From contig OZ242186.1 in assembly GCA_965205675.1 (NCBI GenBank), positions 1,856,001-1,920,000 of the forward strand: a DNA stretch of 64,000 nt, given 5' to 3'. Below the pieces are notes generated by a model. The model was given only the letters and a program-made list of their open reading frames with translations, was not told the origin of the DNA and made no database searches. This stretch comes from Nitrosopumilus sp. (GTDB lineage Archaea; Thermoproteota; Nitrososphaeria; Nitrososphaerales; Nitrosopumilaceae). This document shows positions 1 to 13,745 of this stretch, one piece after another (the first letter of the stretch is position 1; each line of letters starts with the position of its first letter). Both the position numbers and the translations under genes were made by a program.

Positions 1-708
1 CATAGCACCACTTCCTACAGGCACTATAAGGTGATCAGGTACTTGCCAATCAAGTTGTTCTGCAACTTCAAATGAAAATGTTTTTGAACCTTCGACATAG
101 TGAGAGCGCATATTGATGTTTACTATTCCAATTCCTTTACTGTCACCAATTTGTGCAGCAATAGTGTTTGCATCATCATATGTTCCATCTACTGCAATGT
201 AATTTGCACCGTAAGATAATGCTTGAGTGATCTTTGCCATTTCAATATTACTTGGTGCAAATACATGACAGGGTAATCCAGCTTTAGCTGCATGAGCTGC
301 AGTGGCAGATGCTAAATTTCCAGTAGATGCACATCCTACAGCAGACAGACCAAATTCTTTTGCTTTTGATATTGCAACACCAGCAGGTCTGTCTTTGAAT
401 GAAAATGTAGGATTCACAGAATCATTTTTTATGTAGAGATTATCTAACCCTAATTTTTTTCCAAGATTCTCAGCTTTGATAAGAGGAGTCATGCCTGCGC
501 CAATGCTGACAATATTGGATTTGTCCTCTATTGGTAATAATTCAAAATATCTCCAATAGTTATCTTCGCGATTTGCAAATGTATCCTTTGTAATTGTAGT
601 AAAGTCATATTTTACATCAAGTGGGCCAAAACACTCATCGCAGATATATTTGAAATCTGTATCACACTCTTTTTTACATTCTCTGCATTGCAGTGAGGTT
701 CTAGTCAA
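1..708 (-). CDS. thrC: Threonine synthase (5' part; runs off window)
   Basis: Reverse strand from TTG at 708 reads MTRTSLQCRECKK..CDECFGPL..; contains NPTFSFKDR PLP-lysine motif and CASTGNLASA. Confidence 0.9.
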   Translation of the reverse strand, partial: MTRTSLQCRECKKECDTDFKYICDECFGPLDVKYDFTTITKDTFANREDNYWRYFELLPIEDKSNIVSIGAGMTPLIKAENLGKKLGLDNLYIKNDSVNPTFSFKDRPAGVAISKAKEFGLSAVGCASTGNLASATAAHAAKAGLPCHVFAPSNIEMAKITQALSYGANYIAVDGTYDDANTIAAQIGDSKGIGIVNINMRSHYVEGSKTFSFEVAEQLDWQVPDHLIVPVGSGAM

Positions 709-883
709 GATCAATATCTACTTTGAGAATATAGATAAAAAATCCTAATATCAAGTTAAGTATTACTTAACTCTAAAGAGGGTAAAATATAATAAAAAAA
801 TTCATCATTAGAAGGTGAGATAATCTAAAAATTAATAAAAAATCAAGATTTCATAGATTTCTGAATTATAAGGTAAGGTTTTT

Positions 884-2279
884 GTATGTATCAAGCACTT
901 TAGATGTATTTTGCCATCTCAGAAAACATATTCAACTCCCTTATCCTCCATGTTTCAAAGCATGTTAAAAATATAGAAAGCATCCTCATTCCCTGATTGC
1001 TTTTCATCTGTCCGCGAACATTTCTCTGCATGATACACTTTTGAATAGAATTTTCAGTGTCATTGTTAGTTGATGGAATACAGGGATATTTCACAAATGT
1101 AAACAGACTATTTCTTGCAGTTTTTAGTTTCTTACCAAACTGAATCATTTCTTTATCACCTGACATGTATTGACATATTATAGAATCTGTTTGTTTTAGT
1201 AAATTCAACGCATATCTTTTACGTTGTTTCTCTGAATGTTCTTGTATGCTATACCGTCTTGCACGATGCAATGGTTTTGAGAGTTTTCCATAAATGGTTT
1301 TAGCCTGTTTATCATTTGATTTTCTTGCAAGATATTTTGCATCACGCTGCAGATGTGCAGTGCATCTCTGTTTTACATTATCACAAAATACCGTTCTGTA
1401 TGGAGCATATCCATCAGATATTAAAATCCCTGAGAATTTCTTCCAACATTTTTTTAGGATTTTAGCACCTCTACTGTACTCTAAAGTGTGATGAGCTTCT
1501 GTTTTGCTTCTTGCAACCTAACACCCAATCCAGTCTTTCCGTCAATTGGAAATGCTGTCTCATCCATTCCAAGAATCTTTTCAGTCACGATTTCACTACT
1601 AATGTCATGGTACAATGGTTCTAACATAATACTGCCAGTGCGAAGAATAGATTGTACTGTAGTGCAGCTAATTTTCAATCCATATCTTTCTTGAAGAGTT
1701 ACTCTAATGGTATCGTATGGCATTCTCTTTGAGAATAATGAGACTGCCTCACGTATTGCAGAGGAATCAAAGCATCCACATGGTGGAAGATTTCCATCTG
1801 TCTTGAAACTATCAGAGCAGTTCTTGCAATTATACTGATACAAGACATGCTCAGTTGCAATGTATTGAGTTGGTGGAGGGATTTCAACCATTATTCTTTT
1901 GGCAGTCTTGGTTTGAAGGATATCTTCACTTCCACATTTGGGGCATTCTAAACATTTGTGATGTATGGTACTAGTTGGGGTGAATTTCTGTGTTGTGCCC
2001 TTGTGACCTGGTATGCCACCACGTTTTGATTTGCCAGAATCAGAATCTCTGTTTTTCTTTGCATCTTGTTTCTATTTTTTCCATTCAAGTGAATTTTTTG
2101 ATGGTGGCGAGTGTGGATTTTCATAGTATGATAATTTTTGCGTGAGTTGTTTTACTTTTTCTTGTAATTGTAAGATGATTTTCTCATGACCACACTCTGA
2201 CATGTATTGTAGAATGATTTAGATGATCTTTGATTTTTTGTGTAATGGTATTGATTTATGTGTGAAGCTTGATACATAC
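884..2279 (-). mobile_element. IS66-family insertion sequence (degenerate, TnpC only)
   Basis: TIRs GTATGTATCAAGC 884-896 and GCTTGATACATAC 2267-2279 enclose IS66 transposase fragments. Confidence 0.9.
900..2203 (-). pseudogene. IS66 transposase pseudogene (frameshifts and in-frame stop)
   Basis: Fragments NPHSPPSKNS, RGGIPGHKG, CPKC..CKNC Zn finger, MDET, STNNDTENSI in different frames; ATG at 2203. Confidence 0.9.
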
Positions 2280-2414
2280 TTGAAAACGTGGTTTTAATTC
2301 TATTTTCATAATTATGGTTCCAGATCGCTAAATATCCCATAATCAACAAATTAACATAAAATGTCAATAATCCTAGCGTGGATATTTTATCTCGTAATTT
2401 GAATAGGAAAACTC

Positions 2415-2501
2415 GTTGGGTTCGCCAAGTTAGGTATGACGAGTGTCTGAAAAACACTATCTGTTACCACGGATACATGGGTTCAAATCCCATACCCAAC
2501 G
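2415..2501 (+). tRNA. Type II (Ser-like body) tRNA with GAA (Phe) anticodon; atypical or pseudo-tRNA
   Basis: Acceptor GTTGGGT/ACCCAAC with G73; D arm GCCA..GG..TGAC (one C-A mismatch); anticodon stem AGTGT/ACACT, loop CTGAAAA; 6-bp variable stem ATCTGT/ACGGAT; T arm ATGGG-TTCAAAT-CCCAT. Confidence 0.8.
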
Positions 2502-2582
2502 GGTTATGATATCTATCTAATTATTAATCATAAAAACATTTGTGAGTTTTTAGGTTCAAGAATTATTCTAAAAATGATAAAT

Positions 2583-2676
2583 AAACCAATAGTTTAGAGT
2601 TGGTTTCCTGCCAACAACTTAGTGCTAACTATTAGTTTCTACTCAAAAAAAGATCGCAATAGAAACCTATTGGTTT
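2583..2676. other. Putative structured element (multi-stem inverted repeats)
   Basis: AAACCAATAG (2583-2592) pairs with CTATTGGTTT (2667-2676), enclosing GTTGG/CCAAC and GTTTCTA/TAGAAAC hairpins. Confidence 0.4.
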
Positions 2677-2784
2677 TTAATTAGGCATAAAAATAGTTAT
2701 CATTACAAAATATTCATAATTTTAATTACTTGTTGTTATTTTTACAAGTTTACAGTTATTACATATTAATTATGAGTATTATTT

Positions 2785-2982
2785 ATGAAGAAAGCGTTTG
2801 ATAAGACATTAGATAGTATTTCAGATTTACAAGATGCCTTAGATTATATTAACACAGAAAAGACAATTTCAGATAAACAAAAAACCAAAGATTTGGATGA
2901 GGTAAATGAACATCTAAAACAAGCACAAGATATTATTGTAAAGGCTCTTGTGATATTTCGGAAATATGAGAAAGACCTGTAA
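2785..2982 (+). CDS. Small helical hypothetical protein (transposon cargo)
   Basis: 65-aa ATG ORF with natural amphipathic composition and AT-rich upstream region. Confidence 0.65.
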   Translation: MKKAFDKTLDSISDLQDALDYINTEKTISDKQKTKDLDEVNEHLKQAQDIIVKALVIFRKYEKDL

Positions 2983-3153
2983 ACCCATCTAATGTTTTAA
3001 CATAATTACAATTTTTACACTTGTAAAATATCAAACCATTTGAATGAGTTGTTATTTTGATAGGCTCATTTTTTATACATTCAGGATAATTAATGTCATG
3101 TTGTGTTTTCAATACTTACTATTACAAAATAAGTATAAAAACACATTAGTGGG

Positions 3154-3233
3154 GTATGAATCAAGTCATCTATCCCATCAGGAACAAAAATGGAAACTGA
3201 AAACAAATTCTAGACGTGAGGCTTGATACATAC
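3154..3233 (+). mobile_element. MITE with IS66-type ends, copy 1
   Basis: 80 bp, ends GTATGAATCAAG and GCTTGATACATAC; near-identical inverted copy at 38654-38734. Confidence 0.9.
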
Positions 3234-3452
3234 AGGTTTTTAGTTATTTTAGCAAAAAGATGTTTTTGCCAATAAATTATAATTCCAATTATTATTAGAA
3301 CAGTTATTGCAATAGTTGGAATTGCTATGATAAGGCAATGAAGAATCAGATACAAAAGAAATTAAAAGTTTTGTGATGAAAAATTAAATGATAGCAAAAA
3401 TTGAAGATAAGATAGACCAAGGGTTTTAAACGCAAATTTAGAAGGTGGACAT

Positions 3453-3828
3453 ATGCCTAAACTAAGAGAACAGATTACATCTGGATCATTTAAAATTAAT
3501 CGAAATGAATACGTCTTAGGTGAAAAATTTCATGATAACTAGAGGCTTGGATTTTAATAAAAAAAGAAGAGACAAAGTTTCTAAGACTGTCATCTAATGG
3601 TGTATACATTATTTAGTGTATTTGATTAGTTCTTTTGATAGAGTAGATTTAGCAGGAATTGAACTATTATTTAGATTCAAAGCTTTCAAAAATTAACAGG
3701 TATTGTACTACAGAGAATTTTATTGGAGAGGGATAATGTTTAGGAGAACAGATTATTCAAACTTGAGTTTAAGATAACAGATGAAATTATACCAGATGAT
3801 GATAAAATTATGAACCAGTATGTTATAG
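3453..3828 (+). pseudogene. Decayed hypothetical protein gene (approximate limits)
   Basis: Protein-like segments (QITSGSFKINRNEYVLGEK; NYYLDSKLSKINRYCTTENFIG; FRRTDYSN; FKITDEIIPDDDK; YEPVC) broken by stops and frameshifts; resembles from memory a conserved Nitrosopumilus hypothetical. Confidence 0.55.
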
Positions 3829-3829
3829 A

Positions 3830-4159
3830 TTATTTTTCTAAACTGTTATGAAAACAAACATCTTTACCTAAATGACATGCAGGTCCAGAAGGTTCAACAA
3901 GGTAAATAATTGCATCTGAATCACAATCAACTAAAATCTCTTTAATTTTTTGAGTATTGCCAGATTCTTCTCCCTTCATCCAAAGTTTATTTCGCGAACG
4001 ACTCCAAAACCAAGAGTTTCCAGTTTTTTTTGCAAGTTCTAATGATTCTTTGTTAGCATAAGCCAAAGTCAAAACATTTTTTGTATTTGCATCTTGAACG
4101 ATTACAGGTACAAGACCTCCGCTTTTATCAAAATCTATTTCATTAATTGACTTTTCCAT
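3830..4159 (-). CDS. hisI: Phosphoribosyl-AMP cyclohydrolase
   Basis: WSRSRNKLWMKGEESGN, DCDSDA, ACH motifs. Confidence 0.96.
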   Translation of the reverse strand: MEKSINEIDFDKSGGLVPVIVQDANTKNVLTLAYANKESLELAKKTGNSWFWSRSRNKLWMKGEESGNTQKIKEILVDCDSDAIIYLVEPSGPACHLGKDVCFHNSLEK

Positions 4160-4185
4160 GTTATATAAAAAAAATAAAATAGCTA

Positions 4186-4989
4186 TTATAATCTTACAGG
4201 GATTTGATTGTTTTTCAAATGAGACTTTACTCCATTTACACCATGTGTGTTATAGTGAAATATTGAGGCAGCTAAAGCAGCATCCACATTTGATTCTTTA
4301 AAGATATCAATCATATCATCAGGTTTCCCACATCCTCCTGAAGCAATTACAGGTATAGATACAGATTCTACAACTTTTTGTGTTAATAAAATATCATAAC
4401 CGTCTTTTGTTCCATCTTTATCAATACTAGTAAGAAGAATTTCGCCAGCTCCTAGTTTTTCAGCATTTTGTACCCATTCTATAGCATCTATTCCAGTACT
4501 TTCTTTTCCACCATAAATGAAAACTTCAAACCAGAACTGTTTTTTATTTTCAACAAATATATTTTTTGCATGTGTAAGATCATAATTTCTTTTAGCATCA
4601 ACTGCTACTACAATACATTGACGACCAAACAATTCCATTAATTCAGTAATAACTTTAGGATTCTTTATTGCACCAGTATTAATTCCAACTTTATCAGCAC
4701 CATTAAGTAAAATATTTCTTGCATCCTCTAATGATTTAACTCCGCCACCTACAGTGAATGGAATATCGATCACAGATGCAACTTTTCGAACCAAGTCTTT
4801 GATTGTTTTTCGTTGTTCATCAGATGCAGTAATATCTAAAAATATTAGTTCATCAGCTCCCTCATTACTGTACTTTTCAGCTAGTTTTACAGGATCACCG
4901 GCATCTTTAATTGATTCAAAGTGTAATCCTTTGACTACTCGGCCATTTTTTACATCTAAACAAGGAATAATTCTTTTAGTTAAGGTCAT
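4186..4989 (-). CDS. hisF: Imidazole glycerol phosphate synthase cyclase subunit
   Basis: [17 protein letters not shown]; [12 protein letters not shown]; ALAASIFH. Confidence 0.97.
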
Positions 4990-13669: not shown

Positions 13670-13744
13670 AGCGGGGTGGGGAAGCCAGGTCATCCCGGCG
13701 GGCTCATAACCCGCAGTTCAGTAGTTCAAATCTACTCCCCGCTA
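13670..13744 (+). tRNA. tRNA-Met initiator (CAT)
   Basis: A1-U72 acceptor AGCGGGG/CCCCGCT; anticodon stem GCGGG/CCCGC with loop CTCATAA; TTCAAAT T-loop. Confidence 0.96.
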
Positions 13745-13745
13745 C

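Follow-up and report, generated by a model that had tools for sequence, protein, structure and literature searches.

The subject of this report is a class II tRNA gene (one with a long variable arm) that bears the phenylalanine anticodon GAA and lies at positions 2415-2501, on the + strand, of a 64,000-nt stretch of DNA from Nitrosopumilus sp. This stretch, the window, is G000:C1:1856001-1920000 of a host genome (G000) that is 2.01 Mb in length and assembled in one contig; coordinates below are those of the window unless they are referred to G000:C1. The 87-nt gene sits inside a composite transposon-like insertion made of the remnant of an insertion sequence (IS) of the IS66 family, a stretch of cargo DNA, and a miniature inverted-repeat transposable element (MITE). 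It is an intact member of a mobile class II tRNA family in one genus of ammonia-oxidising archaea. The features of the locus, with the evidence for each, are the following.

876-883: target-site duplication, 8 bp, left copy, AGGTTTTT (sequence reading; single copy in the related genome G064)
884-3233: composite transposon-like insertion, 2350 bp, comprising the IS66 remnant, 874 bp of cargo with the tRNA, and the MITE (empty site; Pfam matches of the flanks)
884-2279, - strand: decayed IS66-family element with perfect 13-bp terminal inverted repeats (884-896, 2267-2279) and a fragmented transposase (Pfam; BLAST; ends read)
2313-2572, + strand: tRNA module, that is, leader with promoter box, tRNA, and trailer (BLAST of the cargo; alignment of the genome copies)
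2385-2392, + strand: TATA-like box about 25-30 nt 5' of the mature tRNA end (TTTTAT, 2385-2390, identical in all 4 same-genome copies)
2415-2501, + strand: class II tRNA gene, anticodon GAA, G73, no encoded CCA, one C11.A24 mismatch (ARAGORN; Rfam RF00005, 48.3 bits; family model R1, 100.1 bits; fold)
2449-2451, + strand: anticodon GAA in the loop CTGAAAA, with A37 and A38 (sequence reading; ARAGORN)
2515-2556, + strand: trailer hairpin with a terminal T5 run (2548-2552), a possible terminator (fold of 2400-2556; sequence kept in copies B, C and D)
3154-3233, no strand assigned: MITE of about 80 bp with IS66-type ends, its right end identical to the IS end (6 other genome copies at 93-96% identity)
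3234-3241: target-site duplication, 8 bp, right copy, AGGTTTTT (sequence reading; single copy in G064)

Structure of the tRNA Gene

The window gene is a genuine, structurally sound tRNA gene. ARAGORN places a GAA tRNA at 2414-2502, and the Rfam tRNA model RF00005 matches 2415-2501 over its full length (48.3 bits and E 3e-7, where the gathering score is 29). The acceptor stem is fully paired (7/7, with G1-C72), as are the anticodon stem (5/5, including G30-C40) and the T stem (5/5, closed by the loop TTCAAAT); the 18-nt variable region forms a stem of 6 pairs with a 4-nt loop; the sole mismatch of the cloverleaf is C11.A24 in the D stem (GCCA/TGAC). U8, A14, G18G19, U33 and the T loop are in their usual places in an ordinary 7/5 acceptor/T layout, the discriminator is G73, and CCA is not encoded. 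In the fold of 2400-2556, the acceptor helix reaches 12 pairs through the flanking bases AACTC and GGGTT. The TTTTAT box would serve as an archaeal promoter, and the trailer hairpin is a possible terminator. A preliminary description of this DNA had listed the details of the 87-nt cloverleaf, the anticodon at 2449-2451, the single C11-A24 defect, the TATA-like box, the extended acceptor helix and the missing CCA, and all of them are in the sequence (ARAGORN, Rfam, fold). It had also called the acceptor and anticodon stems more AT-rich than those of the host tRNA-iMet, suggestive of a foreign origin, and the base composition of the gene is indeed foreign-looking: 46-47% GC, compared with 57-69% for the class II tRNAs of the host.

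The IS66/MITE Unit

The insertion lies between a gene for a PALP-type enzyme and the his operon (Pfam). The same 13-bp repeat occurs at 884-896, 2267-2279 and 3221-3233, and therewith at both ends of the IS66 remnant and at the outer end of the MITE. Neither the IS66 remnant nor the MITE is flanked by a duplication on its own; the whole unit is. The corresponding site in G064 (locus L164) is empty: window positions 1-883 align with 1202-2097 of that locus and positions 3234-4730 with 2090-3597, overlapping by 8 bp; the two flanks meet directly at the site, where AGGTTTTT stands once. The existence of the empty site establishes that the tRNA came to its present locus as cargo. Shared terminal repeats, one duplication round the whole and an empty site in a relative are the marks of a composite transposon, and all three are present; the IS66 remnant and the IS66-ended MITE transposed together, carrying the tRNA between them. 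The mobility that the preliminary description had assigned to the gene is directly visible in this unit, its 8-bp duplication and the empty site.

The IS66 transposase is broken up: Pfam DDE_Tnp_IS66 matches two separate open reading frames (ORFs), 900-1271 and 1481-1891. Another copy of the IS66 remnant, 99% identical, lies elsewhere in the genome. The cargo is of mosaic make-up: the tRNA module (positions 34-293 of the cargo query, or parts of them) recurs by BLAST at 74-78% identity in four other genomes (G167, G158, G165, G009) and in a second copy within the host, copy B. The other half of the cargo (2696-3148) recurs in G036 and G172 at 85-87% identity, away from tRNAs of the family, and contains an intact 65-aa ORF (2785-2982, +) with no Pfam match.

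Related and Ordinary tRNA Genes of the Host

ARAGORN finds three long-armed GAA tRNAs in the whole genome: copy A (G000:C1 c1261574-1261656, - strand), copy B (1794332-1794417, + strand) and the window gene, copy C. BLAST adds copy D (c533584-533670, - strand; 34 bits on Rfam), for a tally of three intact copies and one degraded, with GAA in all. Copies A, B and D have one or two stem defects each, and D is plainly degraded. Copies B, C and D are alike over some 100 nt upstream, where the TTTTAT box lies, and some 60 nt downstream, where the hairpin and T run lie; the unit is thus a small cassette and more than the tRNA alone. The host also has a single canonical tRNA-Phe gene (75 nt, A73, G37, G20, 69% GC) and a tRNA-Ser(GGA) gene with a 14-nt intron; given these two, the window gene is an extra.

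Two other host tRNA genes deserve mention. One is a second mismatched tRNA, at G000:C1 c1307300-1307385 (L069:2001-2086, minus strand), with the leucine anticodon UAA on a body close to tRNA-Ser(UGA), whose acceptor stem, T arm and G73 it shares; it scores 75.6 bits on a serine model and 56.7 on a leucine model (both described below). A search of 40 other genomes of the genus for its orthologue returned none, only their tRNA-Ser(UGA). The other is the canonical tRNA-Leu(UAA), with A73, a Leu-type variable arm and two introns, at ~305307-305440 (+) of G000:C1; ARAGORN and Rfam both miss it, and a D-loop motif search recovered it. The argument that G73 is uninformative, since the sole detected tRNA(UAA) of this genome has G73, is ruled out: that tRNA has no orthologue in the 40 genomes, and the canonical tRNA-Leu(UAA) has A73. 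In the window itself, ARAGORN also calls a tRNA-Met at 13670-13745 (+), which scores 60.6 bits in a whole-genome Rfam search; its absence from the window-only gathering search is an effect of the tool's filter.

The Family across the Genus

Eight members from five genomes were aligned. Their stems pair in standard fashion in 94.6% of 168 pair cells, with changes on both sides at 10 of the 21 pairs; none of 500 column shuffles matches the observed pairing, and partners slid out of register pair at only 34-47%. All eight have the anticodon loop YTGAAAA. R1, the covariance model built from this alignment, was run on 151 genomes of the genus; it finds 30 matches of at least 75 bits, spread over 19 of them, and its top match outside the family is everywhere an ordinary tRNA-Ser(GCU), at 72 bits or less. 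The window gene itself scores 100.1 bits, the fourth best in the genus.

Fetching the best R1 matches and aligning them all to R1 yields 52 distinct non-canonical class II tRNA genes in 24 genomes. Their anticodons are GAA in 35, GAU in 8, CAG in 3, and ACG, GGA, CAU, UAU, UAA and UGU in one each, the share of GAA being inflated because R1 was trained on GAA members only and only best matches were fetched. U8, A14, U33 and A38 are invariant; G73 is found in 50 of the 52, G1-C72 in 48, A37 in 46 and G30-C40 in 40, and all but one of the 35 GAA members have the loop YTGAAAA. The acceptor pair 2:71, in contrast, is TA in 34, AT in 6, GC in 6 and CG in 5. As read from these alignments, the family is shown to be under selection at the level of RNA: paired positions of the stems change together, whereas U8, A14, U33, the anticodon, A38 and G73 are held. 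That this is a real, selected and mobile tRNA family is very likely.

These relatives also bear on a simpler account, that all homologues might carry the serine anticodon GGA, with GAA in the window the result of a lone G35A decay mutation or of a sequencing or assembly error. GAA recurs in 35 diverged relatives with co-varying stems, and GGA in only one of the 52 (L037, which joins the acceptor stem of the family to GGA). Independent DNA agrees: contigs of three public sequencing runs, from two studies, span the gene, and the anticodon is unchanged in them. Error and lone decay are thereby ruled out.

Across the order (151 genomes), one long-arm GAA tRNA outside the genus was found among the 10 new R1 loci examined. 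It belongs to a sister genus (G175; locus L184, G175:C1:799062-802150, positions 1500-1592) and has another acceptor stem and A73; a further long R1 match lies in the same genome at 663374-663463. Within the genus, a locus of G172 (L020, G172:C1:405560-408645) holds four tandem tRNA modules at 1207-2039, repeated roughly every 293 nt; three of these modules are GAA (one with a stem defect), and the last is GAU with a broken acceptor stem. The three CAG (leucine anticodon) genes, L062 and L067 in G162 and L064 in G149, combine CAG with G73, which is also the combination of the tRNA-Ser(CAG) of CTG-clade yeasts; each adjoins a transposase, IS240-like or IS1595.

Mobile Surroundings and Independent DNA

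Members of the family keep mobile company. The 80 ORFs within 1.5 kb of 36 family loci include transposases of at least nine Pfam families, and 9 of 20 neighbouring ORFs scanned singly are transposases, again of several families. Copy A has MT-A70/ParB, Fic, TFB and ParB genes for neighbours, and a 22-nt repeat of its 3' end lies 6 kb downstream, beside mobile-element genes; an archaeal integrase gene lies 2.5 kb downstream of copy B.

Such surroundings raise the possibility that the gene, though shaped like a tRNA, serves mainly outside decoding, as RNA or as DNA: it could be an integration target carried along by mobile elements, a decoy or spare for an anticodon nuclease, or a precursor of tRNA fragments with regulatory roles. 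The repeat near copy A and the integrase near copy B are what an integration target would lead one to expect, and among 68 integrated elements of thaumarchaea, 39 have tRNA genes as their targets; in its main text as available, the survey from which this count comes treats tRNAs as integration targets only (PMC6563490). Precedent for tRNAs outside decoding exists as well, in the statement of Mukai et al. (2017), in the available part of their paper, that many allo-tRNA(UAU) species may go unused in translation (PMC5389517). The window copy, however, has no repeat of its 3' end, so that an integrase attachment site is ruled out for it; a DNA target would not retain compensatory pairing, U33, A38, G73, G18G19 and the T loop; and no nuclease or partner gene has been identified travelling with the module, whose neighbours are diverse transposases and methylases. 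A role apart from decoding is rather unlikely on this evidence. Toxin, antiviral and decoy functions, which had been proposed for the gene at the outset, are speculative.

Three exact-pattern scans of IMG/VR (11, 17 and 43 stretches, the first two sets checked with ARAGORN and the third with R1, best score 49.1 bits) yielded no family member on viral contigs; exact patterns miss diverged members, and the null result does not show absence. One of the stretches, IMGVR_UViG_2920785022_000002 (L109), encodes at c1767-1856 an unrelated long-arm tRNA with GAA, G73 and an encoded, bacterial-style CCA, on a viral or proviral contig of 58% GC. The mismatch of body and anticodon is therefore found on bacterial mobile DNA too.

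Public DNA also speaks to the state of the window copy. An identical copy is present in a run from a different study (X4, record 23). Two other runs (X1, X3) contain a variant of window 2406-2513, 95-99% identical, at 20-180x the depth of the unique flank and with A>G at 2439, a change that restores the C11-G24 pair. This variant departs from the window sequence after 2545, so that in the strain that dominates those samples the module has different surroundings. Because the D stem is repaired in the variant, C11.A24 is particular to the window copy, which it may slightly impair.

A copy with a private defect, inside a dead IS66/MITE unit whose transposase is in fragments, could be a decaying passenger on its way to becoming a pseudogene, in a family that may otherwise function; the stem defects of the other genome copies, down to the 34 bits of copy D, lend themselves to the same view. 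It is met by the perfection of the remaining stems, the conservation of the promoter box and trailer, the high rank of the window gene on R1 and the identical copy from the other study. Many tRNAs, moreover, tolerate one C.A mismatch in a D stem. Decay of the window copy is very unlikely.

A Serine-Leaning Body

The preliminary description had called the body of the tRNA serine-type. The question was put to two models, R2, built from the four tRNA-Ser genes of the host, and R3, built from three tRNA-Leu genes of the host, on which all loci were scored:

True Ser tRNAs: Ser model 95.6-105.2 bits; Leu model 50.1-63.1 bits
True Leu tRNAs: Ser model 49.3-65.5 bits; Leu model 95-109.2 bits
Window gene (copy C): Ser model 61.2 bits; Leu model 46.3 bits
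Copy B: Ser model 55.4 bits; Leu model 41.5 bits
Copy A: Ser model 58.7 bits; Leu model 51.5 bits
Copy D: Ser model 25.1 bits; Leu model 27.4 bits

The window gene favours the Ser over the Leu model by 14.9 bits. Across the family the Ser model is ahead in 45 of the 52 members, by at least 5 bits in 39, despite an anticodon that favours the Leu model. In length, the D loop of the window gene agrees with that of the serine tRNAs; it lacks the bases 20a and 20b that leucine tRNAs have in addition. Its anticodon loop, CUG-A-AAA, is, as had been noticed, one base off the CUGGAAA of the host tRNA-Ser(GGA), and its A37 stands in contrast to the G37 of all host leucine tRNAs and of tRNA-Phe. With archaeal tRNA-Ser, the gene has the long variable arm, G73, G30-C40 and G1-C72 in common; a serine anticodon (NGA or GCU) and overall likeness it lacks. 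From tRNA-Leu it departs in G73, in its short D loop and in its score on R3. With tRNA-Phe it shares G34, A35 and A36, and has G73 in place of A73, U20 in place of G20, A37 in place of G37 and an 18-nt variable region in place of a short loop.

Several findings count against a serine body in any strict sense. The 61.2 bits of the window gene are far from the scores of true serine tRNAs, and no member of the family comes near them; the loop of the variable arm is C-rich, compared with GCAA in all four host serine tRNAs; the T arm is nearer to that of the host leucine tRNAs; and seven of the 52 members score equally or higher on the Leu model (two ties and five that lean to leucine, the latter with a longer, Leu-like D loop). 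What stands of the original assignment, then, is G73, G1-C72, G30-C40, the length of the D loop and the preference for the Ser over the Leu model; close kinship with the serine tRNAs of the host does not. Going by these comparisons, "serine-leaning, yet a lineage of its own" is a fair description of the body.

Descent from tRNA-Leu, by change of UAA or CAA to GAA, was considered separately, as most of the odd anticodons of the family lie one step from leucine anticodons. It was judged less likely on G73, A37, the serine length of the D loop and the higher Ser score.

Aminoacylation and Decoding

The N-terminal arm of standard-type seryl-tRNA synthetase (SerRS) reads the long variable arm of its tRNAs and ignores the anticodon. 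A single SerRS gene is present in the host, and its product has this arm (Seryl_tRNA_N, PF02403, 90.9 bits). In the part of PMC9976931 at hand, G73 and then G30-C40 are strong serine determinants for both bacterial-type and archaeal SerRS, and archaeal leucine identity requires A73. For phenylalanine, the same text names G34, A35, A36 and A73 as the identity set common to the five organisms studied, the archaeon A. pernix among them, with G20 as an additional determinant in A. pernix and yeast. Measured against these sets, the window gene has the serine set complete and three of the four universal phenylalanine determinants (A73 and G20 are missing), and fails the leucine requirement. That 50 of 52 diverged genes have kept G73 is most readily understood if some enzyme recognises this base on tRNAs with a long arm, and SerRS is the candidate that this indicates.

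The anticodon is the natural handle of phenylalanyl-tRNA synthetase (PheRS), and with G34, A35 and A36 in place that enzyme could charge the window tRNA in part or in full, alongside SerRS or instead of it. Carried to its end, this would make the family a set of working extra phenylalanine tRNAs, with which mobile elements would boost the decoding of the frequent codons UUU and UUC (and, for the GAU and UAU relatives, AUU, AUC and AUA) in an AT-rich genome. Its appeal lies in codon supply: the commonest anticodons of the 52, GAA and GAU, read codons that are abundant at about 32% genome GC, and the host has only one canonical tRNA-Phe gene. Three conserved determinants are present, yeast PheRS mischarges a tRNA-Tyr that is given GAA (PMC9976931, in its available part), and the sister-genus relative in G175 even has A73. 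The family as a whole nevertheless goes against A73, the fourth conserved determinant; U20 stands where A. pernix and yeast have G20, and A37 where canonical tRNA-Phe has G37. An extra tRNA-Phe, furthermore, leaves the preserved long arm, G1-C72 and G30-C40 unexplained, and L037 puts the family acceptor stem together with a serine anticodon. Such a role is unlikely, if less so than a function outside decoding.

One of the 80 ORFs near family loci matches tRNA_synthFbeta, the CLM domain of the PheRS beta chain, at E 2.9e-35. It falls outside the 20 that were scanned singly, and may be the housekeeping pheT.

The reading that is tentatively preferred here, with a likelihood somewhat below even, is that of a mobile class II tRNA family, probably charged by SerRS, that gives serine at phenylalanine codons. 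The tRNA would be transcribed from its own TATA box, processed at both ends and supplied with CCA. It would most likely be recognised by the single standard-type SerRS of the host, with G73, G1-C72 and G30-C40 lending support, and would deliver serine at UUC and UUU codons in competition with canonical tRNA-Phe. Having A37 rather than G37, and neither A73 nor G20, it is probably a weak competitor, and the outcome would be low-level Phe-to-Ser miscoding, not recoding. Charging by SerRS, and with it the miscoding, is a deduction from identity determinants; that serine is the amino acid delivered is plausible, a little short of an even chance. Besides the distance of the body from true serine tRNAs, what weighs against serine delivery is the opening that the anticodon gives to PheRS, the A73 of the sister-genus relative, the bias toward GAA in the way the 52 genes were gathered, and the slight impairment that C11.A24 may bring to the window copy.

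Implications

Natural tRNAs in which anticodon and identity disagree are rare and instructive on the flexibility of the genetic code: the tRNA-Ser(CAG) of Candida, allo-tRNAs, nev-tRNAs and the human G35A variant are the examples. With an archaeal family, all three domains of life would have such tRNAs, and the phenomenon would be tied to horizontal transfer. This family is old enough for compensatory evolution and has been moved by transposons, yet GAA and G73 have been retained. The identity of its charging enzyme is informative either way, the outcome being natural Phe-to-Ser miscoding on the one hand or a PheRS that accepts a long-armed tRNA with G73 on the other.

A bolder proposal is that a miscoding cassette, ready for expression, is being spread by the mobile elements of ammonia-oxidising archaea. 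Its tRNA would carry serine, act at phenylalanine (or isoleucine) codons and be selected because controlled, proteome-wide Phe-to-Ser errors serve the element or its host. The cassette may, for instance, be an addiction or abortive-infection weapon, or a source of stress-induced protein diversity. This is distinctly unlikely; if true, archaea would here provide their first natural example of a transmissible device for mistranslation.

There is also a warning for annotation. Callers that go by the anticodon label the genes of this family tRNA-Phe, which inflates the tRNA-Phe counts of these genomes, and the same callers overlook the true multi-intron tRNA-Leu(UAA).

Comparison with Known Mismatched tRNAs

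With regard to the canonical tRNAs of its host, the window gene is a patchwork: its class II form, G73, G1-C72, G30-C40 and D-loop length are those of tRNA-Ser, its T arm resembles that of tRNA-Leu, and its anticodon is that of tRNA-Phe. An account of archaeal class II tRNAs with phenylalanine anticodons was not found in the literature covered, which did not extend to the supplementary tables of PMC6563490 (tRNA targets) and PMC8450103 (isotype disagreements); the tRNAscan-SE 2 paper treats isotype disagreements, with none of this archaeal kind in its available text.

The allo-tRNAs of soil bacteria come closest in design. In the available text of Mukai et al. (2017; PMC5389517), they combine a long arm and serine identity with non-serine anticodons, of which UAU is the commonest, occur patchily, and are linked to transposon-related genes and toxin-antitoxin loci; some were shown to insert serine in E. 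coli. The window gene likewise joins a long arm and a Ser-type acceptor to a non-serine anticodon. Allo-tRNAs, as far as that account goes, are bacterial and have an 8/4 or 9/3 acceptor/T layout, whereas the window gene is archaeal, has the 7/5 layout and is known here from its sequence.

Nematode nev-tRNAs are class II bodies with class I anticodons (Gly CCC, Ile UAU), a conserved multi-copy eukaryotic family of low expected use that is charged with leucine in vitro; the parts of the reports at hand do not place them on mobile elements (PMC3333845, PMC4300185, PMC4033280). As with these nev/nov-tRNAs, a class II body with a class I anticodon is kept as a family in the archaea, in 52 genes and 24 genomes. 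In contrast to what those excerpts give for nev-tRNAs, the archaeal family has G73, which makes it unfit for an archaeal leucine identity that depends on A73.

The human tRNA-Ser-AGA-2-3 G35A variant (anticodon AAA) is a Phe-to-Ser mistranslator, in the available portions of PMC12993449 and PMC8599886. It resembles the window gene in being a Ser-type tRNA with A at position 35 that reads phenylalanine codons. By those portions it is a single recent mutation of a normal tRNA-Ser; the archaeal family is old, diverged and mobile, and is not close to any tRNA-Ser of the host.

The tRNA-Ser(CAG) of CTG-clade yeasts is a naturally kept mismatch of anticodon and identity whose function has been shown by experiment. 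Experiment has also shown the function of bacterial mistranslating tRNA-Pro variants (PMC10404621, available in part). In both of these cases, as in the archaea, a mismatch has been kept in nature, but, on the material at hand, they involve other amino-acid pairs and other domains of life, and are chromosomal rather than transposon-borne. The archaeal family belongs with the known tRNAs whose anticodon and identity disagree, and is distinct among them in being archaeal, of ordinary 7/5 layout, long-lived, and carried by transposons.

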